Assembly (NCBI GenBank): GCA_047967505.1
Contig: CM106538.1
Source: Dipteris shenzhenensis
Lineage: Eukaryota
Reading direction: 5' to 3' (one strand)
Length of the DNA: 64,000 nucleotides
In this document: positions 3,542 to 44,990 of the stretch, piece by piece
How positions within the stretch are numbered: position 1 is the first letter of the stretch
Layout of the letters: the number at the start of each line of letters is the position of its first letter
Translations under genes and position numbers: made by a program
The notes under the pieces: generated by a model
What the model was told of the DNA's origin: nothing
What the model saw: only the letters and a program-made list of their open reading frames with translations
Database searches by the model: none

Positions 3542-5915
3542 CCCCCCTCACCCTCACCCTCTCTTCTCTCTCTGGTCAGTAGAGCCAACCAGTTTGCCCT
3601 TCCTACCACTTTTCCTTGTCTTTTTTCAGCCCCTTATCCTTGGTCTCTACGCAACCATCACCTATATAACCTCTTCTCCTTGGTCTTCGTGTAGCTACTA
3701 CCACCTCTCCTCATTGTTCATGTGGCGTTCTCCCTGGTCTTCATACAATCGCTACCCATCCTGATTCCTCATCTTTTCTGCTTTGTCTCCTCCTTGTATT
3801 CCATGTTTCACTGCCTCCTCTAGCCTTGTGTCCCATCTTCTCCTTGCCTTCCACATGGCTCTACCCTCGTGTCCTCTTCTCATGCCCCACATGTCTCTGT
3901 CAACACCATGTCACTACCTACCCCACCATGGGTCATCTATCACACTTGCCACATGTAATCCACCATGTTAGCACCTCTCACATTATCATCACCATGTGTC
4001 TATTAGTGTCCACATCAACATTGATTGCCTTGACTAGACCGATTGACCATTGACCACCACGAAAAAGGAAATATTGGTGCTGAAACCCAAGACCTCCTCT
4101 CTAGTAAAATATTTATTTACTAATAGGCTATGTACCTTTTGATGTAATATAAGAGGGAGAGGGAGGCGGGAGGGTGGGGGGGGGATTGGGAAGTACTTAG
4201 GCAAAACTAAAAAATACAATCTTCAAAGGGTCATATCTTTTTAAGGACAAGAGTTTTGAAGCAATGGAAAAGGAAAATTTACACTATTTCTTGTACTCTA
4301 CCTTTGTATTATGTCACATTCATCAAGAGCCGCTCCTAATTTATTGCCATAATTCAAAGTTGCATGCCACCAAACAATGTCCAAGGAGGCTCAGGTTATA
4401 GTTGGTTATAACTTTTGATTGTGACATTAGAATGAGCCATTGTAAAGATGTGGCCTTTCATTTTTTGAGCTCTGTGTAGAGTTCTAGTCCATTTTAATAA
4501 ATGGTGAAAACATTTTTCATGGAAGTCATCAGAATGTTTAGAGGTGTTCATTAATTAGGCCACCTTGACACCAAGGGAGATTCTTGCATAGGGCATTGAA
4601 GCCATGACCTCCCCACTCAATAAGGCTTGAAGGTTGTTCCAAGAAAAGGTCTCAATCATGTCCCCATTGCCCCCTTAAATCCACATCTTGCATTCTAGTC
4701 ACTCTAATCACTCATTGAAATCTTGCACTTGAATCACTTATTGAAAGCTTCCAAGAACTATGCATTGCCCTTAAAATAGATTGCCACACCTTCATTGATC
4801 ATCTTTCCCACCACTTCTAGGAATGATTCCACAATTATTTCCCCAAAGTAACATGTTTACATCACTAGCCTTGACAAAGCTACCTAAACTTATGTCATCT
4901 TCTACAAGTTTCTAGTTTAGAAACTAGCTGTAAATAAATAAATTCCCTTGAATTTTTACCTTTTCCAAACTCTCCATCTGATACACTTACCTCCATCAAT
5001 AAAACTCTTGATGACCTTGACCTTCCTCATTTTTTCAATATACTTTTCTTTCTCATGTGCACTTACAAGTGCACTTACAAGGCACACCAAAACATCTTGC
5101 ATTGGCTCACCAATACTCATAATTGCATTCTTTCATCAATTGCTAACCAGCCTTAAAGAATTAAAAATCATGATCTCTATTAAAGGAGATAACCTCCGTT
5201 GCGCCTACTACAAGAGGTTTCCCAATACCATTTGGGGCATTGAATCCAATCTAAACTGCCTCGTTAACATTCCCATTGAGATCTACCCTTTTTACTCAAT
5301 AGAACATTGCAAATTACTTTGAGGCTATTCCTTATCATGGAGAAAACAACCTTATGTCCTCCCTTACTTACATCTATAAACTTGCCTGTAATGTTGGTTT
5401 CAAAGGCTTCTATCTAAAAAATAGTTAATTTTATATCACAAAGCATTACCATGTCAAAAAATTGCTCCTCTTTGGCACCTCTTTTAGTTACAATCACTTA
5501 TTCTTGATCTTTGTGTTATCCAAGTTGGATCCCAATGCTGGACTCAAACTAAAGGCATTCTTATGTTCTCTTGCTCCTCTTGGTTCCATCTCTATTTGAC
5601 TATTTTTGAATTTAAGTTCATCAAAAAACTTGTTAGACTTGGTAGAATAGATCTTCTTCCTCTGTTCCTCCACACCTTGCATTATGCCAATGACATTTTT
5701 TTAATAAAAAACCGTATAAGTAAATTTCTTAACCCCTCTCGATCCCTTGCTGCAAATCATCCCTTCACAATCTATCCCCTACAATCATTTCTTTCAAATA
5801 TAGTCTCACCTCTTCTTTTACTTATCCCAAGCAAAACCTCATAGAGCCTTTCTATTATCATTCTATATACCAAAATTTCTTCTTCTCCTCCTTCCTTGGA
5901 GAATTTTCAAAAACT

Positions 5916-7330
5916 TTGTATGGAAGAAAAACTTTTAAACTTTCCCACTATCTCCCTCATGGTGATATCAGGGATCTAGACAAAGTCAATGATTTTAGCT
6001 TGAGTGTTGATGGCAAGGCTGGACAATGGTTTAGAGCCTTAAACCCTCAAGAGAAAATAAATTGGAACACTTTGCGTAAATCCTTCATTGTGGGGTTTAC
6101 CCCCAGTGGTCCTAAGTGGAGCCCAATTAGCCAGCTTTATGAGCTGAAGCAGAAGAACATGGAGTCCTTCAGAGACTATATCACCAGGATTAAACATCTG
6201 AACTCGCGATGTGATCCCCACAAGATCTTGCCATGCTTCCTCATAGGGCTATGAGATGCTAAGCTACATGATCATTTGTTTGCTATGAATCCTACATCGT
6301 TTGAGCTATACAGCAAGATGATGATACGCCTAGGGTATAACATGAGGGAGACGGCCTAAAAGGATAAATCCTTAGCTTCCTTAGATATGTCCCAAATAGC
6401 ATAGGCTTCAACCTCAGAAGCAACTAAGGATGCAAGCATGATGCCCAAGGTGCTCAACATGGAAGAGTTGGCCACAGATCTATTAAACAAGTTGAGCCAA
6501 CAATGGAAGATAGAAGAACCAAAAGATGCTCCTAGCAACCCCCATCTATTTCCATAAACAGATAACATATGGTGTGGAGTATGCAATGGAAATCATCCCA
6601 CTAAGGAATGCCCTCATCTTAGAGCCAAGCCAACACTCTACTATGCCCATTGTGTTCATTGGTGGGGAAAACATGACACATCTCAATGTCATTATCCTAG
6701 GGTGATTCCTCAACCCATTTATCAACAAGGGCCGCATCTAGCATTGCTTGCACTGCCTAATCCATCCAATAAGGCACAATGGGCAATACAAGGAGCCACA
6801 TCAGCTAATTAAGGGCAATTTAGGGCTTAAAATATTCCATTACCCCCGCCAGTACTGGGACCTCAACCACCACCTCCATGCATTACTCCCTTGAATCAAG
6901 TATTGGTGGAAGAGATACCTAGTGAATTAGGGAGACCCCAGACCTACCTTTATTGGTGGACACAACTATCCCCAAAATGGTGACAATGCAAATCAATCTA
7001 GCATTATAAGTCACTACATTATACAAGGTGACCAAAACATTCTGGTCTACCAGACGGCATCGATTCCTTAAAAAGAACTTGACCAAGACAACCCATTCAA
7101 TGCCATATGTGTCAAGGGCCACACCCAACCAATGAGTGTCCATATAAGGGGAAACTAATCACATGTGCACCAGCATCTAATACACCACCGCCATTGTGCA
7201 CTAGGTGTGGTGTGGACCATCTTTTTAAGGATTGCTCGATGAGAAGGCCATCTAAGTCCACAAGCCTTAACTTGTTAAGTATTGAGAGAGGCCAAGTGTC
7301 ATCAGTATCCTTGAATGTAATCATGAGGTT
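5916..7330 (+). pseudogene. Retrotransposon gag remnant with several Cys/His knuckles
   Basis: KAGQWFRAL...INWNTLRKSF...LYELKQKNMESFRDYITRIK (retrotransposon-gag-like); knuckle-like CGVCNGNHPTKEC, CQGPHPTNEC, CTRCGVDHLFKDC; many stops. Confidence 0.75.
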
Positions 7331-8189
7331 ACAAGCTAAATCCCTTAATAAAGATCTTTGCAAACAAGCCAAAAGGGATAAAACTAGTACGTCACAGCCT
7401 AGAGAGGCAACTGAATCAACACAAGTAAGCACCAAGGGTGCAACGAAGATTGGGAAGGGAAAAAATAAGGTCATCATCCAAGATGGGTTGGATGAAGATA
7501 CAGCCTCCCTAGCAACATCATCTTCCTTTGGTGATACTCTCTCAAATGGTACTAGCAACAACCACCCACATGAGGCAAATGAGGCAACGATAATGGGGTT
7601 TCAACCCGCCACATTACCTAATGGTCACGGTGAATATCCCAACCCATGGGTGGGGAAACAAGGTCTCACCGAGGTGCATAAATTGGAATGCAAGTCCTAA
7701 GAGGATGCGAGTTCAGGCTCAAGGCAAGCAAGAATACTGATACAATTCATCCTAGACATGAGATAAACGCTCGAGTCTTAAAAGCCTTGCAAATACCTGA
7801 AAAGGTAGAGGAAGAAGGTGTGTCATGCCCTTCAATAGAGGGATCCACCCTAATGCAACAGATGTTTCAATAAGACCCCCACCTTGCAACAACTAAAGGA
7901 AGTTGACAACATGTTCTTATATGACTTAGAAGGGTTGAAATCAATAGGCATGGAACCAATCATTGGCCCTCAAGACATCATAGGATTAGCCTCATTCTTA
8001 TCCAGTGAGATCAAGATGCCCATCACCACTATTACAGGGGAATCCTACTATATGGGGAGACCTCTTGGATTGCATGAATGGGCAAATAGTGACACCCCAA
8101 TCCACTAATCCTGAGAATATTGAATCTTCCAATCAAGCACAAGACCTTCCAAGGGTGCCAATCAACAAACTGGGCCAATACTTTGAGAG

Positions 8190-16700: not shown

Positions 16701-19361
16701 CATGTGTCCCTTTAGCTAGAGAATATTGTGTATAGTTATGGCCAATCATTGATTGCATTCTTTGATTATGTATAGCTATAACCAATCATTTATTGCATTC
16801 ATAGCTTGCTGGTGTGATATTTAAGACATCAAAAGTTTTGCTACTACATCTTCCTTTGATCTATTAATCCCCTTGATATAGGCATTTCTTCGCCTAAATG
16901 TTGTGTGGCTTGCTAAGGTCCTAATTCTTGGCTTCCTCTTGAGTTGGCTCTTTGTTAGCTTCCTCTCATGGGTTGTGTGATCCTTATAGCTCCTCTTGAA
17001 TCTCATAATTTCCTCTTTATTTCATGTGCCCCTGTTGCTTATTGCAGTTAACTATTCTTTGTTGCATCTAATGAGGTGATTTATGTTGGTTATTGAATCT
17101 TTCAACTAAGGGTAGTTTTTTTTTCTTCTATTAAGGAAATTATTCCTACAAGTGAGGAAACACTTACTTGTTATTGAAACCTTCAAATAGCTCTTGGTGT
17201 ACTTCCACATGAGAAAATTCCAACTATTGAGGGAGTTTCCACTTGAAATAGGCAAGAATAGCAAGGAGGGTCAGCACCTCCAAAATAACAATATAAGTAC
17301 AGAGGGAAATGGATTTCTCATGACTCCCAACCCCTCCTTCATAATCCCCTACAATATTCAATTCTCAAACTCTTCCTAATACCAAATCTTAGAATATAAG
17401 AAGAGTCAAAAAGAAATGTAAGAAGGATGACACAAGAGTACTTCCACCTCACATGCTAAAAGCAATTCCCATTTGAAAGAACACTTGCTTGCATGTATGT
17501 GTAGAACAAAATTTTGGATATTTCTGAATAAATTTATATGTCCTACATAGTTTAGGATAGATGCATCACATACAAAGAAGAATTTGCAATGGTTTTATGA
17601 TCTCATTCAAAATTTGAATTTCATGATGGTTTGGTCTCATATTTAGGGCCAGAATATGTAGATTAGTTTAGACAACAATTATATCAAATTCCATTGAGCA
17701 AAGCAAAAGCTATGGATTGAGCAACTAATATTCCCTGAATCTCATAAAAAGCAATCATAATTTGGCCCAAATGGCCTACATCATGAGAGTACTAGTGCTG
17801 ATTAACCAAACTATTGGAAACTCAAATTGTGTAAAAAGTATTAAATTAGCATTGTTTAGATCTTTAAATATTTAGGTGATAGTTTTGATTTATTTAAAAA
17901 GAGAATCATGGTTTATGTGGCCACTTATGCTAGCCTTAGACGATACATGAATAAAAATACCATTGTTTTGATAATTTAAGGTTACAATATCTGATATTTG
18001 AATGACGGTCAGCATATGTGGCACAAATGAAAAATGTAGTAAGGAAAAATGCACTGATGAGGCATGACATGTCTTGATGGATGTGCTATCAAATTTTTTC
18101 ACAATGAGAAAAAAGTCCCAACAATTAGCACTATGGCTACTAATACAAGTAGTGTGTTTGGAGGTGTCATAGAGGTCTTAGAGTCGATGGTGACTAGGGC
18201 AGACAAATGTTGTATGGACAATGCTGTAGAGGTGAATTTTGGCTGAGATTGGTGGCAAAACTATCACTACAAATTGACAACTATTGTGGATGGGTCTAGC
18301 ATTGAGGTAGAAAAGGGAAGCATAAAACTGAAGTAGGCCAGGAAAAGCATGTAGCAAGAAGGTGTGGGAGATATAACTACATTGTAACATAGGGTAGCTC
18401 TAATGGTGGGACACATGGGGTGCATGGCCACATACTCGATGCATGTGCTATTAAAAAATGATTGGTTTGTCACAAAAATATTCTCAAAAGCCTATGGCTC
18501 CCATCATGGCATCACAGGTCACATAGGCTAATGATTACCTGATCTCCAAAGGAAATCCTAACTAGTCATAAAGACATCATGCAGATATCCTGGGTCAACA
18601 AGGAGACTTCAAGCATCATTATTTATGGGACTACAAAGTGTGTAGACAACGACGGGACTTTAAGCCTTACTTGTGGGACTACATAGTGTGTGGGATTGAT
18701 TGAGGCAAATGATAGTGCAAGTCTTATCAAATTGGATGAGAAGATGTGATGCGTTCAAGTCACTAAAAAACTAAAAGAATCTTATCTCCTCTAATGGACT
18801 TCTATCCCCCAAATTGGAGAGAGAACTAATAAGATTAAACTAATTTTACAAGAATTTGAAGGCTTCAACTTAGAATAACTTGAATTATAGATCTCATATC
18901 AAGACGTTGTAAAAAGCAAAGTTGTTGCTCTGCAATTTGTTCATGCTTTGGTTGTCCTTTGGAAATTCTCACTGATGGAGGAACCTCTTTTTTGTGCATC
19001 TGCACATCCCTGCTTCTGCGCCTCTAGTATGCCTGCAGTTTCGGCGCATCTTCTAGTTGGCAAATCTTTTGGTCGTACCGGTCGCATCTACAAAACTATA
19101 ACATCTGCGCTTCTTCTGGGGTCATGTGCACGCATTCGCACGTCTCCTGGGTGCACCCGCACATCTCTTTGTCATGACTGGCACATTCACGCATGTGTCG
19201 CACATCTTCTAGCCATGGACAGATCACGTCTTCTAGTCGCAACAGATTTTTTGAGCTTCTACAAAACTGTAACAGATCCTCACATCGCGCCCCTCTGCTC
19301 TATCTCTATCTTCTTCTACTTCTACTTCTCTTTCTCTTCTCTTCTCCTCTCCTTTTATTAA

Positions 19362-19425
19362 GGAGTGGGAATTGAACCCAAGACCTCCCCATTCACAAAA
19401 GGGAGACTTATCAATGGGCCAGCAA
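19362..19425 (-). other. tRNA-like motif (A-box/B-box), antisense in the retroelement leader
   Basis: Minus strand: tggcccattgataag...ccctt ttgtgaa tgggg aggtc ttggg ttcaatt cccac; B-box GGTTCAATTCC; no acceptor stem found. Confidence 0.6.
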
Positions 19426-19635
19426 ATAGGAAGTGATGAGAATGTAATGATTTTGCTTATATATTGAAATCTCGAGAACTGTAACTCTCTAACCGTGGGG
19501 AGTTTCCTCTTGCTGCAAAAAGCAAAAGTATTTCATTTCATGTGCTCTATTCACATCTCCTACTAGATCGCCGATTCGGAACTTTTTCAAGTTCACTTCT
19601 TGGGGACGCACGCCACATGAGGAGGGTGGATATTT

Positions 19636-20046
19636 ATGTCACTTCTCGACGAGTTCAAGGATTTGGTGCTTGGTCCTCCGCTCATTATGGCTACCAATTG
19701 GCGAGATCTCTTTCTTGATCTTCATGCTAACCTTCAACGGCTAATTGTCCAATGCATTGTTCAAGGAGATGATGGGTGGAATGATACACCGTGGTTGATT
19801 CAAGGTGAAGAACTGGTGATATACTGGGAAGACTTTGATTTCACTTCTACTCATTGTGCGGTGATTGAGCTACTTGCTGCATCAGAGGTAATTAAAAGGG
19901 TGACATTATTTGAAGGGTGGGATGTTCCCCAAGCTTGGGGGGAGATTTGGCACATCTGCTTATTAATTCTAGTGGATAAGCTCATCTTGAATGATTTCTT
20001 CTCGATCTCGCTACAAAGGTTTCTAGGGCTTGGCTATGGTTGGTAA
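19636..20046 (+). CDS. Accessory ORF1, unknown function (136 aa; alternative start 19687)
   Basis: Open in copy A; homologue at 40360-40769 is frameshifted; stop overlaps the next ATG (TAATG) in both copies. Confidence 0.55.
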   Translation: MSLLDEFKDLVLGPPLIMATNWRDLFLDLHANLQRLIVQCIVQGDDGWNDTPWLIQGEELVIYWEDFDFTSTHCAVIELLAASEVIKRVTLFEGWDVPQAWGEIWHICLLILVDKLILNDFFSISLQRFLGLGYGW

Positions 20047-20270
20047 TGTTTCAACCAAGGAATCCCTTTGTACCTAATCAACCCTTTGTGCCTCATTTTG
20101 AGCTTTAAGTTGTAATTCTTTTTGGTCTAAAGATAAACTATCAACAAAGGATTGCAAGTTTATTTGGTGCTGAACGTCTTGCTCAAGTGTTGAATTCTCC
20201 CCACCCTCTCCTTCTACCTATCTTGGATAACCGAGAAACTTGGGATGTTTGGATTTTGGTCTTGGTGTAA
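20046..20270 (+). pseudogene. Accessory ORF2 (74 codons; one CAA>TAA stop here, open in copy B)
   Basis: Exactly 225 nt between two TAATG junctions; copy B 40769-40993 is open (MFRPRNPFVPNQPF...ILVLV). Confidence 0.6.
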
Positions 20271-20734
20271 TGACATCTTGGCTACTTCAATTTGACGGAG
20301 CATACAAACCTTCGACCAAGGCTGCTGGTGTGGGTGTGAAGCTCACTTCACCGAGGGGTGAGGTGTATTATTATAGCAAGTTTGCACTTGCGAGTACTTG
20401 CAACCAAGTTGAGTACTCGGCACTCATTTTTGGGCTACAAAAGGCACAAGAGCATCACATCAAGCAACTTGAGGTGCAGGGAGATTCTCAACTCGTGTGT
20501 GAACAAGTTAGTGGAATGTGGAAGGTGCGGAGTGAAGGCTTGGTTCCATGACATCAACAAGCATTGGAACTATGCCAACAATTTGAAGAGGTAAACATTC
20601 AGCATATCCCTCGAGCTCAAAATATAGTTGCTGATTTCTTGGCACATGAAGCTTGTACTTCAATCACGCATGACGCGAGTGGAAGCACCACCCCAACAAA
20701 GCCGCAAGCCACAAAGGAGGGTGATCATTTGTAA
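20270..20734 (+). pseudogene. Free-standing archaeal-type RNase HI (aRH), 154 codons with one internal TGA
   Basis: LQFDGA...GVGV...CNQVEYSALIFGL...LEVQGDSQLV...W.V...QHIPRAQNIVADFLAHEA: D-E-D-D catalytic set with Arg in the HIPR motif; stop at 20549-20551. Confidence 0.85.
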
Positions 20735-20870
20735 GGAATGCAAAGGTTGTGGTCATCATGAAACTAAGTGTTGGGCATATTTGATACGAGTTTACCGACT
20801 TCGAAAGATCATCAGAAAGGTCCTCAAGGACATTGCTCAAAAGAAGGATGCCAGACTGCACACCCCTTGA
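20670..20870 (+). CDS. Small basic CCHC zinc-knuckle ORF (66 aa)
   Basis: CKECKGCGHHETKC = CX2CX4HX4C followed by an R/K-rich stretch; open in both copies (41394-41594). Confidence 0.6.
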   Translation: MTRVEAPPQQSRKPQRRVIICKECKGCGHHETKCWAYLIRVYRLRKIIRKVLKDIAQKKDARLHTP

Positions 20871-21012
20871 AGAAATAGCATGGCGATTACAAGAACTGGA
20901 AGAAGCTAAAGGTGATGTGCAAGCTCTCCAACTGTTGACATTTGTCATGGAATTCTTGTTTGCCTTGATGAACAACCTCATTCAGCGCCGTGTCTCTAAC
21001 CCTCTCTTGTAA
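20848..21012 (+). CDS. Accessory ORF5 (54 aa), unknown function
   Basis: Manual translation MPDCTPLEEIAWRLQELEEAKGDVQALQLLTFVMEFLFALMNNLIQRRVSNPLL; overlaps the previous stop; copy B has ATG>ATA and CAG>TAG. Confidence 0.4.
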   Translation: MPDCTPLEEIAWRLQELEEAKGDVQALQLLTFVMEFLFALMNNLIQRRVSNPLL

Positions 21013-21028
21013 AGATGGATGTGATATC

Positions 21029-21244
21029 ATGAGGGTTGGTCCTTTTAAGATTGTCTATGAGCTATTCTATGCTGAAGATTCTTCCCGTGTACTATTTCAC
21101 AATACACCAGTCACATCCTGCCCTGCCTATGTGTGCTTTGTGGATGTATCTTCACCTGATTTTCAGTTCAAGCTACTCTTTCCATTGTTTGCCCATAGAT
21201 TAGCCTCATTTCGTCTCTCTTTTCCATTTTCCAAGCATGGCTGA
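21029..21244 (+). CDS. Accessory ORF6 (71 aa), unknown function
   Basis: MRVGPFKIVYELFY...FSKHG; ATG lies in an ATGA overlap with mini-ORF 21015-21032; stop overlaps the gag start (ATGGCTGA). Confidence 0.45.
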   Translation: MRVGPFKIVYELFYAEDSSRVLFHNTPVTSCPAYVCFVDVSSPDFQFKLLFPLFAHRLASFRLSFPFSKHG

Positions 21245-22200
21245 CATTCTCGTGTTCTGTGGATGGGTTGAAGAAAATACAAATGAGTATCTTGTGGCTT
21301 TCAAGTGCCGTTGTGTTTCTCTCAACTTTCTTACTGAAGATAGATGGCTGTTGGTTCTTCCCACATTTCTAGAGGGTTTGGCTCAAGTGTGGTATGAGAA
21401 GTAGGCTGATGACATTTGCCAAAGCTGGCCAAGGTTAACAGCAGTGATGATTGAGTATTTTGGCAACAAAGAAGAGGAGTCGAAGAATGTGTACTTACAG
21501 GTGGCAAACTTGAAGCAGTCAGAAGGTGAGACGACGCATCGATATGTGGATCGAGCAGCCGTGCTCCTCGACCGTTTAATTGCAATGCAGGAGGACAATG
21601 CCAGATTTTGAGCTAGAATGACTCAGCATGTGCTGGGCTACCTTATAGCAGGAGCAAGTGACGAATTCTGCCTCAAGCTTAAATGGGAGAATCCAGAAAC
21701 TATGGTGCTAGCACATGAGATTGCTCAAAAGTTTGATAAAGTTCAGTCTGACCCCGCTTCAAAGAAGACGATTGTCCCTTCGCAACCCCCTCAATTCTTG
21801 CAACAACAACCTGGGGGGTCTAACTCAGGGGCATACCCCCACCCCTCATCAGGGATGTATCCACCACCTCCACCTCAAATGTATGGTCCTCCCTTAGATG
21901 CTTACCCTCAACAAGGAGTATATCCTCAACCTCCACCTGGAAGATTTCCCCAACCTCGCCCACGAGCCCCCCTCCTTCCTACTCCCCCGGCCCCTCCTGC
22001 TAAAGAACCCGGGGTCAATGACCTAGCCAAGGCCCTGAATGATCTTTGGCTTGAGATGGTGGGCATCAGAAATCAATCCAATCGCCTCCAAGAGAACGTG
22101 CTAATGTTGTGTGCTACGAGTGCCACCAGAAGGGTCATTATCGCACAGAATGTTCCTATATTCCAAGGGTGAATCTTCTAAGTGAATCAAGCACTGAGGA
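21237..22200 (+). pseudogene. Gypsy gag remnant (copy A)
   Basis: MADI.VFCG...FLEGLAQVWYE...NLKQSEGET...YV, Pro/Gln-rich linker, CYECHQKGHYRTEC; stops and frameshift. Confidence 0.85.
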
Positions 22201-22399
22201 TTGGGGGGCATTCTTCAGTTCTATCTCTGGGTAGACGTTGTCCTTCTCAATGCAAGCCAATAGACTATTACAAAGCATAGGAGAGTGCTTGTGTGCTTCA
22301 AACAAAGCTCTCACGTATCAAGAGTCTTTGAATCATTAAAGCAAGGACACATGGTTCACAGTACCGATGTTAGATATTGGAGTTGTTTCAATAATTGGT

Positions 22400-22740
22400 T
22401 CAAAGTGGGGGGAGTGTGCAAAAGTATCGTCATATAAGATCCATAATGGGGTTGACAGATTTCCATCGCCACACTACATATATATCTTTCCAGTTGTAGA
22501 TGACCACATCTATATTGGTCTTTGAAGGAATTTTAAAAGCCACACAATAGAAATCCATCTCCCCAAAGATCACCGTGTGATATTGGAACACTTATTCATG
22601 TAAGGTATTTGTTGTGTATTTTGACTCTGTCCTGCTCAAGTATAAAGCTCAAATTTAAATATGTGTTGAAGCAATTTATTACTTATTGGTCATTGTTGTG
22701 CAAGTTTGAAAAATAGTCACCTATTGTATAATCATAATGC
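22400..22740 (-). pseudogene. Possible OTU-like cysteine protease remnant
   Basis: Fragments in shifting frames: GDYF, GDLWGDGF, IDVVIY, LYDDTFAHSPHFEPI, in OTU motif order. Confidence 0.25.
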
Positions 22741-28468: not shown

Positions 28469-30010
28469 TGAACAAATATTAAGATGGAGAGGAGAAGAGT
28501 GGAGATGAGGAGAAAGGGATTAGCTAGAGAGCACATCACAAATAGCTGACTATACACTAGATTACTTAAAAATAATGAATATGTAAACCCCTTTAGGGTA
28601 AGGGTTAGGGTTAGGGTTAGGGTTAGGGTTTCCAACCCTTGTGCCTTTTTAGAACTCTATGTGTTAGTGCACATACAATAACACATGATGTTGAGATGAA
28701 TCCTCAACGCCTTCCCTCAAGATCAACATCATGAAGTAGGCCTTCCATGAAGATGATGATTATGGGGAATGGAAGCAATATTGAACATTACATTCCATCA
28801 CACCTCTTTAATGGGAATGTCCTTGCTCTGAGTCAATCCAAGAGCTTGTCGATGTTTCCTGAAAATCTCTTTCCCAAGTGGTTAGGTAAAGATATCTACA
28901 ACATTCTCTTTGGTGTCACAATGTTGCTATGTGATGTCACCCAGTAACATTCTTTGTTTGATGAAGTGCTCAGTGACATCAATGTGCTTTGTCGTGGAGT
29001 CATATACTGGATTCTTGGCTAATACTTGAGCTGATTGATTATCACAATATATTGTTGTTGGCTTTGACTCATCAAAGTAATCTATTTGTGCCAATAGTCT
29101 ACTGAGCCATATGGCCTCACATGCACCTATTCTGAGTGCCTTATATTTTTCTTCTATTAAAGGCAAAGAAGTAGTTGGCTTCTTGTTTGTTGACAACCAT
29201 GATATAGCATCTTGACCAAGGAAATATGCATATCCTTATGTGGATATCCTAATCTCATGATACTCTGCATAGTCACTATCACAATATCCATGAATCCTTG
29301 GATGATTTTCCAAACTGTCTTGTACCTTTGCTGTATCTCAAGACTCTCTTGGCTACATTCTAGTGAGACTATATTTTGGATTTGCCATAAAGTATGCTAG
29401 TGAGCATACTGCATAACAAATACCTAGCCTTGAGACATTCAGATATATGAGAGATCCGAGGAGTTGCTGATAGTACTTGTCATTGATTGTAGGATTTTTT
29501 GGATCTTTTGTAAGTTTTAAACTCTGCTCCATGAGAGAGGCCGCAATCTTGCAATCTACCATATGAAACTTCCTTAGGAGACTGTACCCACATATTTGTG
29601 TTGGCTCATGAAGGTGTTGTTTGAGTCTCTCTAGAACTGCACAAGTCCAAGATATTTCAAATTGAACTCCACAAATAAGTCTTGTTTAAGCTTCTTGATG
29701 AAGCTCTCACTACTTCTTGTCGCAATCGAATCATCTACATACAAAAGGGTGATAGTATTATCTTCTTGATGAAGCTCTCACTGCTTCTTGTCACAAATCA
29801 AATCATCTACATACAAAAAAGTGATAGTATTATCTTCCCCTTGAAATTTATAGTGGAGAGTATGATCTGCATTGGACTTTTTGTATCCTAGATTAGCAAA
29901 ATAGTTATCATTTTTGCTATACCAACTTTTTAGTGCTTGCTTTTCAAGCCATAGAGACTTTTCTAGAAATACCTCTTGCTCGAGAGGTGCTTCTCCCAAA
30001 ATTTGCTCTT
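28469..30010 (-). mobile_element. 3' part of a Ty1/Copia element: RT, RNase H, PPT, 3' LTR (28469-28709)
   Basis: LKSWYSK, FLYVDDL, YQQLLGSLIYL (RT); IYCDNQSAQVLAKNPVYDSTTKHIDV (RNase H); PPT ccttccctcaag 28710-28721; LTR is the reverse complement of the family at 55955-56184. Confidence 0.85.
28592..28630 (+). repeat. (TTAGGG)n-like tract inside LTR
   Basis: tttagggtaagggttagggttagggttagggttagggttt. Confidence 0.9.
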
Positions 30011-30149
30011 TTTTATTTTCCAAAGCAATATGCTTTGCGAACTTTCCATAGAAAATGAAGTTTTGGAATACCAAGTGGATTTCTTAGTTCCAAATTGAAA
30101 TTTCCATATCTCTTATGCCATATAGCAAAAAGTGGCATCGATTGATGTC

Positions 30150-32797: not shown

Positions 32798-35440
32798 TGT
32801 TGGTAAGCTGAAAGGAAAGCAAAGAGTGGACACAAACTCAGAATACTTGCATTATGGAATGAAGAAGAGTGAGGTCCTTAAGTAGGCACCTCATACATGC
32901 TCATTGACATCACTGATGACTTCAGAGCTCCACAATCATCTCCTCAATCTACTCCTAGATTCTCTCAATCATCCTATGTGGCTCTCCACCACCTAACTGT
33001 GCTTGTGGGCACCTAACTGTGCCTCTAGCACTCACACATAGAAACCAAGGTGTGCCTGAGGCATACACCTTGAGATATCCCATCAAACCCCCCCTCAAGG
33101 GAATGCCTCAGGCTATGTCAAGGATACATCTAGTCTCATAGTTTCTCATGCCATCTCATGGTGGTCAAGGATAAATCTATGGCTAGGTTCTCATGCTAGC
33201 AAGGGTTCCCATGGGTGTAAGGTAAACAAAAAGGGATACAAAAAGACCTTCCAATGGTTATCTCCCCTGCATGTACATGCACACAATGTCTGCAGGAGGT
33301 ACCATGGAGCAAAACATACACATGGCCTACATCATAAGGTGACCAGAGGTGTTTACAAAACACACAAAACACAATAATTTATTTCATTCATTTTGAAGGA
33401 CTATCCAGGCTGAGTACCTTGACATAAAAAGAGAGATCTGGAGCATACATAGAGATGATTTAAAATGCATAATCTTCAAAGGATGCCTCATCTTGTGGAG
33501 GCTCATCAACTGAAAGTAGATTTGCATTTTCAGTCTTTGCTTTGGCTCTGCAAAACTTCTCATGATGGTTGTTCTTGCCATAGTGTTTGCATGGGTTAAT
33601 TTTGAAGCAATCCTTTGAAAGGTGATTTGTCTTTCCACAGTGATTGCAAGGGGTATACTTGCCCTTCTGGACTTTTATAGCATAAACAGTGTCATTGCCT
33701 TTCCTGAGCTCCATATGCCTTTCTTTTTCTTGGAGAGCAGAGATAATACCTTCAAGATTAGGATTAGGAAGATTCTTCAAAGTGGTAACTATGTGATCAT
33801 AATCTTCAGGCATACTCTTAAGTAACACTGCCATAGCATCATCTGGAGTAATAGGAGAGTTGATAGAAGTTAATTGAGTCATAAGACTCCGCATATAGTT
33901 GACATGAGCTGCCAAAGTAGTGCCACTAACCATCTTCAATTCAAAGAAAGAGATTTTAAGTGATAATTTAGAGATGTGAGAGCTAGCACCAAAAATCATG
34001 TCAAGCTTCTGCCAAGCTTTTGAAGGGGACTCTAAGTCAGAGATGTGGTGAATATAATCATCTCCTAAAGCAAGAGCAATGATACCATATGCTTTCTCCT
34101 CTCTAGCGGGATCCCTTGCCGGGCGTGTCGGAGTTGAGGATTCTCCAGCATTGGAGGCTGTAGAAGAAGCAGTTGGAGTTGGTTTGACAAGTCCCCAGAG
34201 GTTCTCCCTCATCAATGCAAATTTCACCTTCATCTGCCATGTGTGGAAGCCCTTTCCATTGAACTTCTCTAGATTCAATAGGGTAGCCATGAGAGGGTCT
34301 AACCTAGATATTGGGCAGTGTCTTTCTCTCTTACAAGGCAAAAAATAACTGAAAGGCTTCCAAAATATAAGCACTTGATGTAGCAAAGACTAGTATATTC
34401 AATCAATGATGCTTCTTCTTACATGCTTCATAGAGGTGGCTAAAATGAATACTTTCCAATCAAAACCAGGTCTAGCAATTCAAAGAAAAACTGAAGCCAC
34501 ACTTGTACTGATGCTATTAAAAACTTCAAAAACTCAGAAGTGCTAGAGTAGCATTTTATGTAGCATCATCTTCAAAAACTTGTCAAAACTGTCAAAACCA
34601 AAGGACTAAACTTAGAGGGCTTATAGCTCACTCTTCAAAGCAAGGAAAAGAGGGCTTCATGAAGCAAAAGAAAGCTCATATACCAGAGAGGATCTAGCAC
34701 AGAGGTTGGACGAAATGGTGCGCGCTATTGCCCGGGGGAGTTGCTGCAGGCTGAACCTGAGTTTTGACAATTTCTCCTTTGTTACTAAACCAAATGAGCT
34801 GAAAAATGACTCAAAATCTTCGTCTTGAGGTCGCCCATCTACTCCTAAGAGGGCTCAAGCAATGGCGCAGCAGGCAGGGAGTATTGAGCAATAGAAGAAT
34901 GGCAAAAAAATGCACTGTTTGAAGAATGGCAGCCAACAGAGATGTTTTTTTTTCAATTGCTTGCAGGTGAAAGTTTGCCCATACTAGAGGAGTTTACAGC
35001 TCAGAGGGTTTGGGCAATGGTCATTTGTAGGCAGAGAACCAAGCTCTCAAAGATTTTGGGAAGAAGGAGGAAAATGGGGAAGAAGAAGATGAAGAAGAAG
35101 AAGATGATGTGGCAGAAATGGGCTCAAGGGGGATCAAAGGGCTCTGATACCATGTTGGTAAGCTGAAAGGAAAGCAAAGAGTGGACACTAACTCAGAATA
35201 CTTGCATTATGGAATGAAGAAGAGTGAGGTCCTTAAGTAGGCACCTCATACATGCTCACTGACATCACTGATGACTTCAGAGCTCCACAATCATCTCCTC
35301 AATCTGCTCCTAGATTCTCTCAATCATCCTATGTGGCTCTCCACCACCTAACTATGCTTGTGGGCACCTAAATATGCCTCTAGCACTCACACATAGAAAC
35401 CAAGGTGTGCCTAAGGCATACACCTTGAGATATCCCATCA
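32798..35440 (-). mobile_element. Complete gag-only LTR retrotransposon (TR-GAG-like), 2643 bp
   Basis: LTRs 32798-33085 and 35153-35440 (288 bp, TG...CA, about 7 mismatches by eye); TSD AGATG at 32793-32797 and 35441-35445; PBS-Met 35141-35152; PPT from 33086. Confidence 0.95.
33460..34290 (-). CDS. gag: Copia-type Gag, 276 aa, intact
   Basis: EKFNGKGFHTWQMKVKFALMRENLW; DAMAVLLKSMPEDYDHIVTTL; knuckles CNHCGKTNHLSKDC and CKHYGKNNHHEKFC; no pol downstream. Confidence 0.88.
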   Translation of the reverse strand: MATLLNLEKFNGKGFHTWQMKVKFALMRENLWGLVKPTPTASSTASNAGESSTPTRPARDPAREEKAYGIIALALGDDYIHHISDLESPSKAWQKLDMIFGASSHISKLSLKISFFELKMVSGTTLAAHVNYMRSLMTQLTSINSPITPDDAMAVLLKSMPEDYDHIVTTLKNLPNPNLEGIISALQEKERHMELRKGNDTVYAIKVQKGKYTPCNHCGKTNHLSKDCFKINPCKHYGKNNHHEKFCRAKAKTENANLLSVDEPPQDEASFEDYAF

Positions 35441-38550: not shown

Positions 38551-39540
38551 TGTTATGGATAAATTTGTCTAAGGAAAAAGGCATTAATATGTGTGTGTGT
38601 TTGTATGTGTGGCAATAGTATAATAAAATATGGTGTGCATAGGGCCCAGGGTTGAGGTGGCAGGGCATGACCATGTGCCACTCTTCCACATAAGAGGACC
38701 CATAAGGTGTGTTGTACATAATCCATGGTAGTAATATTATAAAATGTAAGGTGGCATGGATCCTCCATGTGCCACCCCTCCACCTAGGCTGCATTTAGTG
38801 AGATATGGCTCAAAGTCTATGGGAGAAGTAATATAAAATAGGTGGAGATGGATATTATATTGGGTTATTCCCTCCATATAGGATAGGCCCATGTGGGGGA
38901 GGTATAAAGGTTCAAGAGAGCAAGTTAAATAATGGGGAAAGTAGGATGAGATGGCAAGATTCCTTGTGCCAACCCTCGACTTGTCCTCCTAGAGGTTTGA
39001 ACGTATTATAAAATTGGGAAGAGACCAAGGGAGTATCATAGACGTGAGATATGGGGCTTGATTTATGTGGAAAAATGAGGCAAAGGGTTGTCGCACACAA
39101 TTGAGAGTGCGTAACCGCCTAGCCCACATGGGAGACTTTTCCACACACACCATGCATGTGGGAGGATGCATTTATTGGGAGAGACCCCCTCTCTTGGCTA
39201 TAAAAGGAGGGGGCTATTCCTTGATGGGACACGCTCATTCTTGTAAAGCCACCTAGCTAGTACTTTGATTTCTCCTTTCCCTTCCTTTCAAAATAAAGCA
39301 TGGTCCTCTTCCCTTGATGTCTCCATCTTTACATTCCTCCTCCCATAATGTACATGCTTCTCTTCCCCCTCTCCCTTTCCCCTTGTGTCATAGTCTCCCT
39401 CTTCATTCCCTCCCCTTCTAATTCCTTTTCCCCTCCCATGATAACGTTTCGCCCTCACGTTCTCCTTTCCTCTATGGCCCCCGAGCATTGCCATGCTTAG
39501 CCTCTAGCCCCTGGTCCTGATTTCTTTTCCAGCTAATAGA
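38551..39540 (+). mobile_element. 5' LTR, about 990 bp (TG...GA)
   Basis: Highly similar to 57622-58620; tataaaagg at about 39198, aataaa at about 39292; PBS 2 nt downstream. Confidence 0.85.
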
Positions 39541-39542
39541 AA

Positions 39543-39560
39543 TGGTGTGGTTGCTGGGAT
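39543..39560 (+). promoter_or_regulatory. tRNA-His primer-binding site
   Basis: tggtgtggttgctgggat, 17/18 to the recalled complement of the plant tRNA-His(GTG) 3' end TGGTGTGGCTGCTGGGAT. Confidence 0.8.
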
Positions 39561-40086
39561 CAAAATCTCCATGGCTAGTGGTGTAAAACCTGTTAATCCT
39601 ATGACTAGGTGCGGCTCTGCAGCCTCTTCCATACATAGTTCTCTACTTTTGCACCTCCAAACTGTGTACCTTCCCTGTCCCTACGGCCGCAAAACCTTCC
39701 TTCTTTTGCACTTTTAGTCTGCCTGCTTTCTGCTTACGGTTCCTACGTGTATTCTGGCTGGCAAATCTTCTTCTCATATCGGTCGCATCTGTAGAACTGT
39801 AACATCTGTGCTCCTTTTGAGTTCCTGCCCGCGCATTCGATTCGCGCGTCTACTGTGTTCACCTGCATGACAGTTTTTTGGGCTCCTGCATCTTCTGGTT
39901 GCGAACAATTTTCTTGCTTGACACGTCTACTGTGTTCACCCGCGCGACAGTTTTCTAGGCTCCTGTGTCTTCTGGTCACGGACAGTTTTTCTGAGTTTCT
40001 GCAAAACTCTAACAGTAGATCCCGCGCCCCCCCCCTCTCTTCTCTTTCTCTTCTCCTTCTCCTCTCCTCTCCTCTCTTTTTATTAA

Positions 40087-40150
40087 AGAGTAGGATTTGA
40101 ACCCAAGACCTCCCCCTTCACAAAAGAGAGACTTATCATTGGGCCAACAA
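40087..40150 (-). other. tRNA-like motif antisense in leader (copy B)
   Basis: Minus strand: tggcccaatgataag..ctctt ttgtgaa ggggg aggtc ttggg ttcaaat cctac. Confidence 0.6.
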
Positions 40151-40768
40151 GTTGGAAGTGATGAAAATGTAATGATTTTTGTTTATATATTAAAATCTCG
40201 GGAACTGTAACTCTCTAACCGTGGGGAGTTTACTCTTGTTGTAAAAAGCAAAAGTACTTCATTTCATGTGCTCTATTCACATCTCCTGCTAGATTGCCGA
40301 TTCGGAACTTTTCCAAGTCCACTTCACGGATGCACGCCACACGAGGAGGGTGGATATTTATGTCACTTCTCGACGAGTTTAAGGATTTGGTGCCTGGTCC
40401 TCCGCTCATTACGGCTACCAATTGGCAAGATCTCTTTCTTGATCTTCATGTCAACCTTCAATGGCTGATTGTCGAGTGCATTGTTCAAGGAGACGACGGG
40501 TGGGATGATACACCGTGGTTGGTTCAAGGTGAAGAACTATTGATACGCTGGGAGAACTTTGATTTTAATTCTACTTTGTGCAGTGATCTGAGCTACTTGC
40601 TGCTTCGGAGGTAATTAAAAGGGTGTCCTTCATCGAAGGGTGGGATGCTCCCCAAGCTTTGGGGGAGATTTGGTGAATCTGCTTGTTAATTCCTATGGAT
40701 AAGCTCGTCTTGAATGGTTTATTCTCAATCTCACTACAAAGGTTTCTAGGCCTCGGCTATGGTTGGTA

Positions 40769-40993
40769 ATGTTTCGACCAAGGAATCCATTTGTACCCAA
40801 TCAACCTTTTGTGCCTCATTTCGAGCTTCAAGTTGTAATTCTTTTTGGTCTAAAGATAAACTATCAACAAAGGATTGCAAGTTTATTTGGTACTGAACGT
40901 TTGGCTCAAGTGTTGAATTCTCCCCACCCTCTCCTTCTACCTATCTTGGACTACCGAGAAACTTGGGATGTCCGAATTTTAGTCTTGGTGTGA
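40769..40993 (+). CDS. Accessory ORF2 (74 aa), open
   Basis: Bounded by TAATG (40767-40771) and TGATG (40991-40995). Confidence 0.6.
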   Translation: MFRPRNPFVPNQPFVPHFELQVVILFGLKINYQQRIASLFGTERLAQVLNSPHPLLLPILDYRETWDVRILVLV

Positions 40994-41458
40994 TGACATC
41001 TTGGATCCTTCAATTTGATGGAGCTTACAAACCTTCAACCAAGGTTGTTGGCGTGGGTGTGAAGCTCACTTCACCGGGTGGTGAGGAGTATTGTTATAGC
41101 AAGTCTACACCTGCAAGTATTTGCAATCAAGTTGAGTACTCGATGCTCATTTTTGGGCTACAAAAGGCACAAGAACATCACGTCAAGCAACTTGAGGTGC
41201 AAGGAGATTCTCAACTAGTGTGTGAGCAAGTTAGTGGAAGGTGGAAGGTTGCGGAGCAAAGGCTTGGTTCCATGACATCAACAAGCATTGGAACTTTGCA
41301 ACCAATTTGAAGAGGTAAAAATTCAGCATATCCCTTGAGCTCGAAATCTAGTTGCTGATTTCTTGGCACATGAAGCTTGTACTTCAATCACGCATGACGC
41401 GAGTGGAAGCACTACCCCAACAAAGCCGCAAGCCACGAAGGAGGGTGATCATTTGTAA
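40993..41458 (+). pseudogene. Archaeal-type RNase H (copy B), frameshifted
   Basis: FDGA, NQVEY, QGDSQLV, ADFLA motifs; +1 insertion near 41250 and TGA stops. Confidence 0.85.
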
Positions 41459-41594
41459 GGAATGCAAAGGTTGTGGTCATCATGAAACTAAGTGTTGGGC
41501 ATATTTGATACGAGTTTACCGACTTCGAAAGATCATCAAAAAGGTCCTCAAGGACATTGCTCAAAAGAAGGATACCAGACCGCACACCCCTTAA
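41394..41594 (+). CDS. Small CCHC zinc-knuckle ORF (copy B)
   Basis: CKECKGCGHHETKC, open reading frame of the same length as in copy A. Confidence 0.6.
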   Translation: MTRVEALPQQSRKPRRRVIICKECKGCGHHETKCWAYLIRVYRLRKIIKKVLKDIAQKKDTRPHTP

Positions 41595-41963
41595 AGAAAT
41601 AGCATGGCGACTACAAGAACTGGAAGAAGCTGAAGGTGATGTGCAAGCTCTCCAACTGTTGACATTTGTCATGGCATTCTTGTTTGCCTTGATGAACAAC
41701 CTCATGTAGCGCCGTGTCTCTAACCCTCGCTTGTAAAGATGGATGTGATATCATGAGGGTTGGTCCTTTTAAGATTGTTTATGTGCTATTCTATGCTGAA
41801 GATTCTTCCCGTGTAGTATTTCACAATACACCAGTCACACCCTACCCTGCCTATGTGTGCTTTGTGGATGTATCTTCACCCGATTTTCAGTTCAAGCTTC
41901 CTTTTTCTATTGTTTGTCCATAGATAAGCCTCGTCTTGTCTCTCTCTTTTCCATCTTCCAAGC

Positions 41964-44900
41964 ATGGCTGACATTCCCGTGTTTTGTGGATGGGTGGAAG
42001 AAAATCCAAATGAGTATCTTGTGGCCTTCAAGCGCCGTTGTGTTTCTCTCAACTTTCTTACTGAAGACAGATGGCTGTTGGTTCTTCCCACATTTCTAGA
42101 GGGTTTGGCTCAAGTGTGGTATGAGAAGCAGGCCGAAGACGTTCGCCAAAGCTGGCCAAGGTTGACAGCAGCAATGATTGAGTATTTTGGCAAAGAAGAG
42201 GAGTCGAAGAATGTGTACCTGCAGGTGGCAAACTTGAAGCAGTCAGAAGGTGAGACGGCGTGTCGATATGTGGATCGAGCGGCCGTGCTCCTGGACCGTT
42301 TAATTGCCACGCAGGAGGACAATGCCGGATTTTGAGCTGGAATGACTCAGCATGTGTTGGGCTACCTTATAGCAGGAGCAAGTGACAAATTCCGCCTCAA
42401 GTTTAAATGGGAGAATCCAGAAACTATGGCGCTAGCACATGAGATTGCTCAAAAGTTTGAGAAAGTTCAGTTTGACCCCGCTTCAAAGAAGACGATTGTC
42501 CCTCTGCAACCCCCTCAATTCCTGCAACAACAACCTGGGGGGTCTAACTCAGGGGCATACCCCCACCCCTCATCAGGGATGTATCCACTGCCTCCACCTC
42601 AAATGTATGTTCCTCCCTTAGATGCTTACCGTCAACAAGGTGTATATTCTCACCCTCCGCCTCGAAGATTTCCCGAGCCTTGCCCATGAGCCCCCCTCCT
42701 TTCTACTCCCTCGGCCCCTCCAGCTAAAGAGGCCCCCCCTGCAACAAAACCTGGAGTAAATGACCTAGCCAAGGTCCTGAATGTGATCTTTGGCTTGAGA
42801 TGGTGGGCATCAGAAATCAAGCCAACCACCCTCCTAGAGACCGTGCTAATGTTGTATGCTATGAGTGCCACCAGAAGGGTCATTATCGCACGGAATGTCC
42901 GAATATTCCAAGGGTGAATCTTCTAAGTGAATCAGGCATTAAGGATTCTGATGTAGAGATCCTTGACCTTGGGAAAAGAAGTCGTACCACCTCGGACCCC
43001 TCTCCATCCGGGCCACCCCAGGAAGAAGGTGTCCTTCTCAGAGCCCTCAGATGCTGAGATGGCAGACCCACCAACAGAGAAGACTAAAAGATCCCGTAGG
43101 AGTAAGTGGTCGCCCTTGGATTTTCCTATCGGCTTGGGGCAAGAAGACTATTCGGTCGTTTAGGACCTTGCTCACCATTCTTTGAGCATCACGCTCCCTC
43201 AACTAATAGCATTAAGCCCTAAGGTGAGACGTGAGCTGTAGCAAGGGCTCTCAACAAGGAGGAGCAAGAAAAAATGAAAGGTACAAGAGGTATCTTCTAT
43301 CTCTGAAGAAATTGATCGGCACCCACATACAATCAATGTCATCATAGATAATTGCCGTGTCAAAAATATGTGTGCTGATGGGGGAGCTGCATGTAATATC
43401 ATGGTGCCCCGAATCATGATGAAATTGAATTTGAAATGTACAAGGCATTCCTCCACTCGAATCAAGGTAGCAGATGGTCGACGACTTGCCACCCTGGGAG
43501 TCATTGAGGATTTGCCCATCACTATCAATGGGTTGACCACCACCGTCAATTTCTATGTAGTGGACATTGAAGATACAGGTAGGAGTTACCCAGCCATACT
43601 CGGGAGACCATGGTTGAGAAAGAGTGATGCAATCAACTATTGGAAGACAAGACACATGTCTTTTGGTGCTTCTAAGGAGAAGATCCCGGTGCAACCAGGT
43701 GCCACAGAACCAGAAGAAGAAGAGGAGCAAGACAGTGATACTCTCTCATCCTCGGTGTTTGAATCAGTGGAAGAATCAGACAAGGGGGAGGAGTTCTCAA
43801 AGGAGGAAGTTTACATGATGGGGGTGTCTCCGACCCCACCACCTGCAGAAAAGGTAATAGCTAGTCCTCAATAGCTTGAATCTATGCTTTCCCCAGACCT
43901 CACTCCAAGTGAGAAAGATGAGTTCCTAGAAATGTTCAAAGATTTCCCTGACCTTTTCGCAACTAGCTACCGCCACCTTTGCCATGTGACTGCCATAAAA
44001 CACAAGATAGAGTTGAAGCCTGATGCGAAGCCTGTGGCTCAGAAGTATCGGAGATTAGGGCCCCTACAGACCGATGCTTTGCGCTCAGAGTTACAGAAAC
44101 TTGTAGAAGCTGGGTTTATTGTTCCGGTTCACAATACTGAATGGGTTTCACCAGTGGTAGTCACCCCAAAGAAAAACAACAAGTGACGGGTCTGCATCGA
44201 CTATAAGAAACTCAATGCGGCCACCAAGAGGGATCATCATCCTCTTCCCTTTCAAGACCTCATTCTTGAGAAGGTAAGTGGTCATGAGATGTATACTTTC
44301 TGTGATGGTTACTCTGGGTTTTATCAAATCAGTATTGCCGAAGAAGATGTGCTTAAAACCACATTTGCCACACCTTGGGGGACATTTGCATTCAAAGTAA
44401 TGCCATTTGGCCTCACCAATGCCCCTGCTACCTTTCAAAGATTTATGTAGATGGTGTTTGCTCCTTATTTGGGGGATTTCTTGGAGGTATTTTTAGATGA
44501 TTTTGTATATTCTCATCACGTAAGGAGCACGTCATGAAGGTTGGATTGGCCTTCCAAAGGGTCAATGATGTGAATGGCAGTCTCAACCCTCAGAAATGCA
44601 CCATTGGAGCCACTCAAGGGAGGTTACTGGGACATATTGTCTCATCTGAGGGCGTCAAGCCTGACCCCGAGAAGGTAGAAGCCATCCTCAAGCTCTCCCC
44701 ACCAACAACCAAATGTTAAGTACGCTCATTTGTCAATCTAGCAAGATACTATCGCCGCTTCATTGATCAATATGCTACTTTGACACGACCCATGACTATG
44801 CTATTAAAAGATGGGGTTGATTTCTCTTGGGATGAGGATTGTGATCATGGGTTTGCACAAATTAAGAGTGCTCTTGCTTCAGAACCCATTCTGCGCAATC

Positions 44901-44990
44901 CTGATTGGTCAAAGGCTTTCTATATCAATCCTGGGTTTGGTGAGCACACTCTGGCAGGTATTCTTCTCCAGCAAGGGGAGGATCGCTAAG
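41964..44990 (+). pseudogene. gag-pol remnant (gag, CCHC, protease, RT, partial RNase H)
   Basis: CYECHQKGHYRTEC; CADGGAACNIM...AILGRPWL; RT at about 43900-44760; ALASEPILRNPDWSKAFYI; several stops and frameshifts. Confidence 0.92.

Follow-up and report, generated by a model that had tools for sequence, protein, structure and literature searches.

Probable ORF1–ORF2–RNase H cassette with overlapping stop and start codons upstream of gag in a Ty3/Gypsy family of Dipteris shenzhenensis

Tat retrotransposons of "structure #4" carry an additional archaeal-type RNase H (aRH) upstream of gag and have been described from four mosses and Selaginella tamariscina by domain-based mining; the authors of that study asked how a pre-gag aRH could function (Biryukov & Ustyantsev 2023, PMC10508981). 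The same layout is named "pre-capsid" in a 2026 paper (PMC13468544). Here we analysed a 64,000-nt stretch of DNA from Dipteris shenzhenensis (assembly GCA_047967505.1, contig CM106538.1; hereafter the window), which holds two copies of a Ty3/Gypsy family with an aRH in the same place. As in structure #4, the archaeal-type aRH of this family occupies its own 5′ open reading frame (ORF) before gag, and gag is followed by protease (PR), reverse transcriptase (RT) and native RNase H (RH). Unlike structure #4 as described in both papers, two further ORFs, ORF1 and ORF2, precede the aRH and are joined stop to start. We consider it fairly probable that this is a Tat family of the pre-capsid type in which the aRH is the third gene of an ORF1–ORF2–aRH cassette coupled by reinitiation of translation. 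The initial annotation had not recognised the architecture; an RNase H ahead of gag proved to be known already, while ORF1, ORF2 and their conserved coupled junctions are, as far as checked, apparently undescribed. In the main texts on Tat structure #4 and pre-capsid elements we saw neither ORF1 nor ORF2 nor stop-start coupling mentioned; the supplementary tables of PMC10508981 may show such ORFs.

Three other groups of elements offer points of comparison. Ogre-type and some other Tat elements carry extra ORFs (eORFs) of the PMD or Tr28 kind, in sense orientation, upstream of gag (PMC4408406). Our element resembles them in placing accessory genes between its 5′ end and gag (in Ogre, between the long terminal repeat (LTR) at the 5′ end and gag), and differs from the eORFs presented there in that ORF1 and ORF2 match neither PMD nor any other Pfam family, are much smaller (136 and 74 aa) and form, with the aRH, a set of three putatively coupled genes. 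Termination-reinitiation at UAAUG or AUGA overlaps is described for influenza B M1/BM2, caliciviruses, the hypovirus CHV1 and the SART1 long interspersed nuclear element (LINE) (PMC10275272, PMC2699510, PMC5902531). As in these systems, the stops and starts of ORF1, ORF2 and aRH share nucleotides, are out of frame and follow long ORFs; unlike those cases, the junctions are two in series, belong to an LTR element and lie upstream of gag, not near the 3′ end. Unlike the systems described as having a termination upstream ribosomal binding site (TURBS), our junctions gave no sign of an upstream ribosome-binding structure when their folds were compared with shuffles, and coupling is proposed here by analogy. 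Literature searches found no paper on stop-start coupling in any LTR element.

The pregenomic RNA of Caulimoviridae is polycistronic, with small ORFs linked by short overlaps or fused stop and start codons (PMC5902531). Like these viruses, the present element belongs to the reverse-transcribing elements of plants and places small accessory ORFs before the ORF for capsid and polymerase, although it is an LTR retrotransposon and they are pararetroviruses. Leaky scanning of the type known from them needs AUG-free upstream ORFs, whereas ORF1 contains 9 internal ATGs (ORF2 has 1), which makes it unlikely that ORF2 or aRH is reached in this way. The ORFs scanned against Pfam included no recognisable transactivator-like protein.

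The features that carry the argument are the following, copy 1 and copy 2 being the two copies of the family in the window.

19636..20046, plus strand: ORF1, 136 aa, open in copy 1
20044..20048, plus strand: junction 1, TAATG, ORF1 stop over ORF2 start; TAATG at 40767-40771 in copy 2
20046..20270, plus strand: ORF2, 74 codons, cut in copy 1 by TAA 20106-20108
20268..20272, plus strand: junction 2, TAATG, ORF2 stop over aRH start; TGATG at 40991-40995 in copy 2
20270..20734, plus strand: stand-alone aRH, 154 codons, matching RVT_3 (4.4e-27) and RNase_H (3.1e-7)
39752..41458, plus strand: copy 2 leader, ORF1 (40360-40769), ORF2 (40769-40993) and RNase H (40993-41458)

Comparison of the window with itself aligned copy 1 (19228-22202) with copy 2 (39967-42947), 90.25% alike over 3006 nt, and gave a weaker match of 19051-19161 with 39752-39867; no further stretch of the family was found in the window. 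Both copies are old, decayed, truncated pieces of a repeated Ty3/Gypsy family. The ORF coordinates of the initial annotation were right, as were the two TAATG junctions and their persistence in copy 2 (TAATG 40767, TGATG 40991). It had overlooked the in-frame stops of copy 1 at 20106 in ORF2 and at 20549 in aRH.

The aRH is, on the sequence comparisons, certainly a gene of this family. It starts with an ATG of its own at 20270 and closes with its own stop (20732-20734), 500 nt upstream of the gag ATG at 21237. In copy 1 it is a pseudogene, the ORF from 20270 ending at 20551 with an in-frame TGA (20549-20551), and the Pfam matches were obtained over 20270-20731 with this TGA read as X; copy 2 has a +1 insertion and two stops. 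With the stop again read as X, 31 of 44 candidates of 84-270 aa in public protein sets matched. The closest, P0044 and P0045, are 154 aa long and 80-81% identical at full coverage, P0044 itself matching RVT_3 at 1.1e-28. Both have R at the position of TGA 20549, which fits decay from CGA to TGA. The length of 154 aa recurs in 8 of 15 listed members of one aRH cluster and in 6 of 8 of the other. In alignment A5, D9, E48 and D72 are invariant and D122 is nearly so, at the positions of the catalytic D, E, D and last D. Compared with the aRH of Tat polyproteins, which lies there between native RH and integrase, the present aRH shows 34-45% identity.

ORF1 is likewise certainly a gene of the family, as judged from its relatives. 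Its sequence predicts an acidic protein of 136 aa that founds a new family with no Pfam match. Searches of public protein sets at all lengths gave seven matches, the best of which, P0075, is also 136 aa long and aligns from 1-136 to 1-136 at 63% identity. In the close cluster 9 of 11 members have 136 aa, and three clusters of distant relatives (131-147 aa) are 30-36% identical; an alignment of 20 sequences has 18 invariant columns. The ORF1 frame is open in copy 1 and frameshifted in copy 2 (-2, then +1), and neutral simulation with 20% substitution left it without a stop in only some 2% of runs. Relatives of ORF1 and of the RNase H occur on contigs of identical lengths (8128, 1403 and 1283), suggesting that they probably share contigs, side by side; the 8128-nt contig seems to carry both P0086 and P0119. 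ORF1 and four relatives gave only chance-level matches in Pfam at E up to 1-10, and the ORF1 profile found nothing better than E 0.7-0.9 among PDB sequences. Atlas look-ups with ORF1 and ORF2 returned no firm match, and rows resembling leucine-rich repeat (LRR) or F-box proteins (0.82-0.88) are leads only. The ORF1 alignment gave 166 pattern matches in JGI metagenomes, of which 0 were confirmed, and none of seven window ORFs had an exact match in the protein collection searched.

ORF2 is probably a gene of the family as well. The TAA in copy 1 leaves 20 codons, and copy 2 has CAA at that place and an open ORF2 of 74 aa (40769-40993). The N-terminal 70 aa of one public protein, P0052, are 74% identical to ORF2 from the same start Met; beyond this part P0052 changes frame and continues in the RNase H frame. 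Pfam at E up to 1-10 gave chance-level matches only. With two genes, ORF1 and ORF2, that are unannotated and invisible to domain-based mining of transposable elements, and one of them founding a Pfam-less family, the cassette extends what is described for pre-gag aRH.

Substitutions between the two copies are consistent with coding in all three frames. The ratio of non-synonymous to synonymous change (dN/dS) in the claimed frame was 0.29 for ORF1 (0.92 and 1.42 off frame), 0.15 for ORF2 (0.47 and 1.91) and 0.33 for aRH (0.49 and 0.83), so that claimed frames stand against an off-frame range of 0.47-1.91. Third positions took 23 of 46 substitutions in ORF1, 9 of 15 in ORF2 and 19 of 38 in aRH, together 51 of 99 (p=1.4e-4). 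These patterns point to purifying selection on all three genes, at present or in the past. Taken with the gag-PR-RT matches of copy 2 and the intact relatives of ORF1 and aRH, they bear out the claim of a Gypsy-type element with genuine extra genes upstream of gag.

The junctions can be set against the rest of the window. ORF1, ORF2 and aRH occupy three successive frames, each -1 to the gene before. Outside the copies, 149 ATG-initiated ORFs of at least 50 aa occur in 110.8 kb-strands (1.35/kb), and 59 of at least 70 aa (0.53/kb). Among 733 background ORFs of at least 20 aa, the stop of 50 shares nucleotides with the start ATG of a further ORF at least that long. By these counts the small ORFs past the aRH, and any single ATGA or TAATG overlap, fit chance. 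Overlaps of one ORF of at least 60 aa into another of that size number 2 in 120, and one of the two is a junction of the element studied here. ORF1, ORF2, aRH and their two conserved junctions are beyond chance. In local folds, the pentamer of junction 1 lies in a 7-nt loop on a 7-bp stem in both copies, as do 127 of 5705 background positions, and a 5-bp hairpin in each copy holds the AUG of junction 2 in its apical loop. Of 124 AUGs, 11 were placed in such a loop (hairpins of at least 5 bp), the ORF2 and aRH AUGs of both copies among them, and no other claimed start was in a hairpin loop. The motif TGGGA, a candidate for the TURBS-type complementarity to 18S rRNA, occurs 25-29 nt before the aRH AUG in both copies; there is none within 100 nt of junction 1.

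These observations can be combined into a mechanism. ORF1, ORF2 and aRH would all be read from the full-length element RNA, and ribosomes would restart at the UAAUG or UGAUG overlaps by termination-reinitiation, twice, each restart AUG being presented by the apical loop of its own small hairpin. By analogy with the viral and LINE systems, termination-reinitiation at the two overlaps is plausible. The gag AUG has the best start context among the starts, and 14 ATGs in the spacer between aRH and gag put it beyond the reach of scanning, so that another route to gag must exist; ribosomes might get there by shunting, by internal entry, on a spliced RNA or from a second start site. The family offers a testable answer to how a pre-capsid aRH is expressed, namely as the last of three genes tied stop to start. 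If coupling is true, a translation trick of viruses and LINEs would extend to LTR retrotransposons, and these elements would stand closer in layout to plant pararetroviruses. A bolder version, that reinitiation is serial and hairpin-presented and that ORF1 and ORF2 serve as partners enabling a free-standing aRH to act in reverse transcription, we put forward only tentatively and hold to be less probable than its negation. If that version held, the family would provide the first accessory operon with stop-start coupling known from an LTR element, and would explain the expression and use of a separate RNase H in pre-capsid Tat.

Several points weigh against the coupled cassette as a whole. The hairpin-loop observation was made post hoc, 141-nt regions around the junctions were no more stable than shuffles (z -0.08 to -0.70), and TGGGA occurs in the window at chance density (161 against 164.6 expected). 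Junction letters in the relatives were deduced from protein lengths, and the ORF relatives are gene-caller products on short contigs. ORF2 is evidenced by three sequences, and its relative P0052 may reflect a fused ORF2–aRH ancestor. The selection signal comes from 99 substitutions in one pair of copies, and gag, intended as the positive control, showed no third-position excess (25 of 67, p=0.28), suggesting that the test is weak and that the divergence is probably mostly decay after insertion. All copies in the window are broken. In-frame stops shared by both copies in RNase H (20549) and gag (21609) could point to a common defective ancestor instead of parallel CpG decay. The placement in Tat, drawn from the type and position of the aRH, is a probable one, and the conservation of the spacer, with its CCHC pattern, could mean a fourth gene for a small basic knuckle protein. 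Finally, two RNA runs compared with the region gave 1 partial read and 0 reads, too few to judge expression.

The alternative that survives best accepts the three upstream genes as real and leaves them uncoupled; spliced or subgenomic RNAs, shunting or internal entry would serve for their expression, and the overlaps would result from compaction. We regard it as unlikely, if clearly ahead of the remaining rivals. It would account for junctions at which neither structure beyond that of shuffles nor a clear 18S-complementary motif was found. It also fits the requirement of gag for a non-scanning route, given the 14 spacer ATGs. Reinitiation past ORFs of 136 and 74 codons normally requires special elements or factors (PMC10275272, PMC5902531). 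Against it, two junctions of the same pentanucleotide type have been kept through 10% divergence, one of them by a stop-to-stop change, both restart AUGs sit in hairpin loops, and overlaps between ORFs of at least 60 aa are as rare as given above.

Coupling was claimed at the outset to run much further, through four more ORFs between aRH and gag.

20735..21236, plus strand: spacer from aRH stop to gag ATG, best-conserved stretch of the family, four ORFs inside, none supported as a gene
20646 (or 20670)-20870, plus strand: CCHC-pattern ORF, overlapping aRH by 64-88 nt
20848-21012, plus strand: ORF5, open in copy 1
21015-21032, plus strand: mini-ORF, with ATGA at 21029-21032
21029-21244, plus strand: ORF6, whose TGA overlaps the gag ATG at 21237

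On this full-chain account seven or eight ORFs would feed ribosomes by serial reinitiation into gag-pol. Every ORF of the chain is seen in copy 1, and both copies retain ATGA where the mini-ORF meets ORF6; the CCHC ORF has an uninterrupted frame in each copy and encodes a basic product (isoelectric point 10.6) with the pattern C-X2-C-X4-H-X4-C. The region is also the most conserved of the family: 20650-21150 is 95-99% identical between copies, against 86-94% elsewhere, and word depth in the contigs peaks at 20482-21165. However, no coding signature was found. Third positions of the CCHC ORF, ORF5 and ORF6 took 9 of 27 substitutions (p=0.57); of the changes between copies in the CCHC ORF, 5 are non-synonymous and 0 synonymous, and dN/dS is 2.09 for ORF5 and 0.6 for ORF6. 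In copy 2, ORF5 has ATA in place of ATG and has gained a TAG, and ORF6 carries +1 and +2 insertions and ends at 41923, 41 nt short of the gag ATG at 41964. The insertions that shift ORF6 recur in other copies of the family, +C at 21175 (depth 72 of 141.3 in X1 and 173.6 of 425.8 in X5) and +TC at 21213 (101.2 of 101.2 in X5, 0 of 39.3 in X1).

Pfam returned nothing for the CCHC ORF up to E 1, against 1.2e-3 for the element's own gag knuckle, and the ORF had no relative among proteins of 40-130 aa, a weak negative as gene callers may skip an ORF that overlaps aRH. BLASTP matches of the CCHC ORF (E 0.06) and ORF5 (E 0.009) among 74 fetched proteins were judged to be chance, and chance alone would yield ORFs of such a size. 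The claimed continuation through the CCHC ORF, ORF5, the mini-ORF and ORF6 to gag is unsupported by the sequences as a coding chain; we judge serial reinitiation along the whole of it very improbable. The spacer more probably forms, as part of the coupled-cassette reading and with the same fair degree of confidence in the two together, a conserved cis-acting non-coding control region in place of four more genes. Its predicted fold was no better than shuffles (z +1.5 and +0.9), and CpG density, considered as a cause of its low divergence, is ordinary.

Two further observations concern the spacer. Within 20689-20908, 7 of 8 substitutions fall in one codon phase, that of the aRH third position (p=0.008); no open frame on either strand accounts for this bias, and past 20734 stops close the aRH frame. 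In antisense, an ORF of 105 aa (20664-20981, minus strand), with a counterpart of 97 aa in copy 2 (41412-41705, minus strand), spans the spacer; its substitutions are nearly all non-synonymous, and in copy 2 it has a stop at its 3′ end.

It is similarly improbable that ORF2 and aRH make one protein, by way of a fused ancestral ORF or programmed -1 frameshifting, with TAATG incidental. P0052 does read from the ORF2 Met into the aRH frame, every frame change is -1, and the aRH frame is open for 13-32 codons upstream of its ATG. Yet P0052 is a single sequence of 145 aa with an aberrant C-terminus, while 14 listed relatives have 154 aa from the same Met as the aRH; a check by eye found no canonical slippery heptamer in the overlap, and the coding signal of ORF2 stays in its own frame up to its stop. 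Least probable of all, and refuted for ORF1 and aRH by their intact relatives, is the proposal that nothing here is functional and that chance ORFs and a captured RNase H relic lie in the leader of a dead element: every window copy is broken and small ORFs are common, but ORF1 has intact relatives of conserved length and distant subfamilies at 30-36%, relatives of ORF1 and aRH reach 63-80%, third-position excess is specific to frame, and neutral simulation speaks against an unconstrained frame.

The remainder of the two copies is as follows.

19051..19635, plus strand: leader, in both copies, with weak likeness from 19051 and good likeness from about 19340
21237..22202, plus strand: copy 1 gag, interrupted in frame by stops at 21402-21404 and 21609-21611; end of the copy about 22202
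41964..44983, plus strand: copy 2 gag, protease, RT and start of native RNase H, by Pfam and tblastn matches
38551..39663, plus strand: LTR-like direct repeat of 1.1 kb, 91.5% alike to its partner at 57622-58742, starting with TG and holding a TATA-like box

Copy 1 ends at about 22202 and has no pol. In copy 2 the order is gag, PR, RT and the start of RH, ending at 44983 before any integrase. Its gag matched Retrotrans_gag (PF03732, 3.5e-6) and has its own zinc knuckle (zf-CCHC, 1.2e-3); protease occupies 43278-43874, RT 43881-44507 (RVT_1, 1.1e-8), and the first half only of native RNase H 44519-44983 (RT_RNaseH_2, 6.2e-9). By tblastn, in pairwise comparison, the RT fragment was 35-40% identical to six aRH-bearing polyproteins. 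Membership of structure #4 would predict a degenerate native RNase H beside RT; the fragment here, half a domain, aligned weakly (E=0.03) to the connection region of murine leukaemia virus (MLV) RT, and has no Asp at the expected position of the first catalytic Asp.

Contigs of two DNA runs from the same organism were compared with 19000-22400 at a likeness of at least 85%, giving 189 and 249 pieces, mostly 90-99% alike (53 and 65 pieces below 90%). Their depth rises at 19228, falls to 2-8 in the gag region and is about 0 past 22192. The spread of likeness and the edges in depth mark a repeated, diverged family of which copy 1 is a 3-kb fragment. Stretches 19389-19476 or 19389-19608 are absent from some of the family's contigs. 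The leader holds 6 ATGs over 19340-19635. On the minus strand of 19362-19422 (about 40087-40147 in copy 2), most of a tRNA-like form was noticed by eye, lacking CCA but including GGTTCAATTCC as a T-arm-like part and a loop resembling a GTG anticodon loop; neither ARAGORN nor Rfam gave a match, even at E up to 1 over 19000-21400, leaving the tRNA-like reading unsupported.

The LTR-like repeat at 38551-39663 ends about 90 nt ahead of the homology of copy 2 to copy 1, and no counterpart was found upstream of copy 1. It may be the LTR of the family, as a candidate only. The repeat and its partner were rejected as the two LTRs of one element, as their flanking 5-mers differ and a host gene lies in between. 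The partner at 57622-58742 abuts a Copia integrase, and its flanking 5-mers are unlike a target duplication. Two short matches of 73-77% link 17479-17724, upstream of copy 1, with 45988-46232, downstream of the pol of copy 2.

Elsewhere in the window, an importin-alpha gene with introns lies at 47270-50934 (plus strand), with an IBB match at 1.8e-15 and a C-terminal exon at 5e-57 to a solved plant importin alpha. Copia-type pieces at 58584-60968, 28927-30083 and 33460-34389 (all minus strand) include an integrase (rve, 4e-13), RT/RNase H-like ORFs and a knuckle gag (Retrotran_gag_2, 1.2e-30). Two direct repeats of 289 nt (32798-33086 and 35153-35441), 97.6% alike and separated by 2355 nt, may represent the LTRs of a small element flanking the Copia gag region. 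At 5733-7700 (plus strand) a further gag of Gypsy type (Retrotrans_gag, 1.3e-12), unrelated to the family studied here, precedes a cysteine-rich ORF, and at 53070-53409 a tandem repeat has three copies of a unit of about 116 nt.

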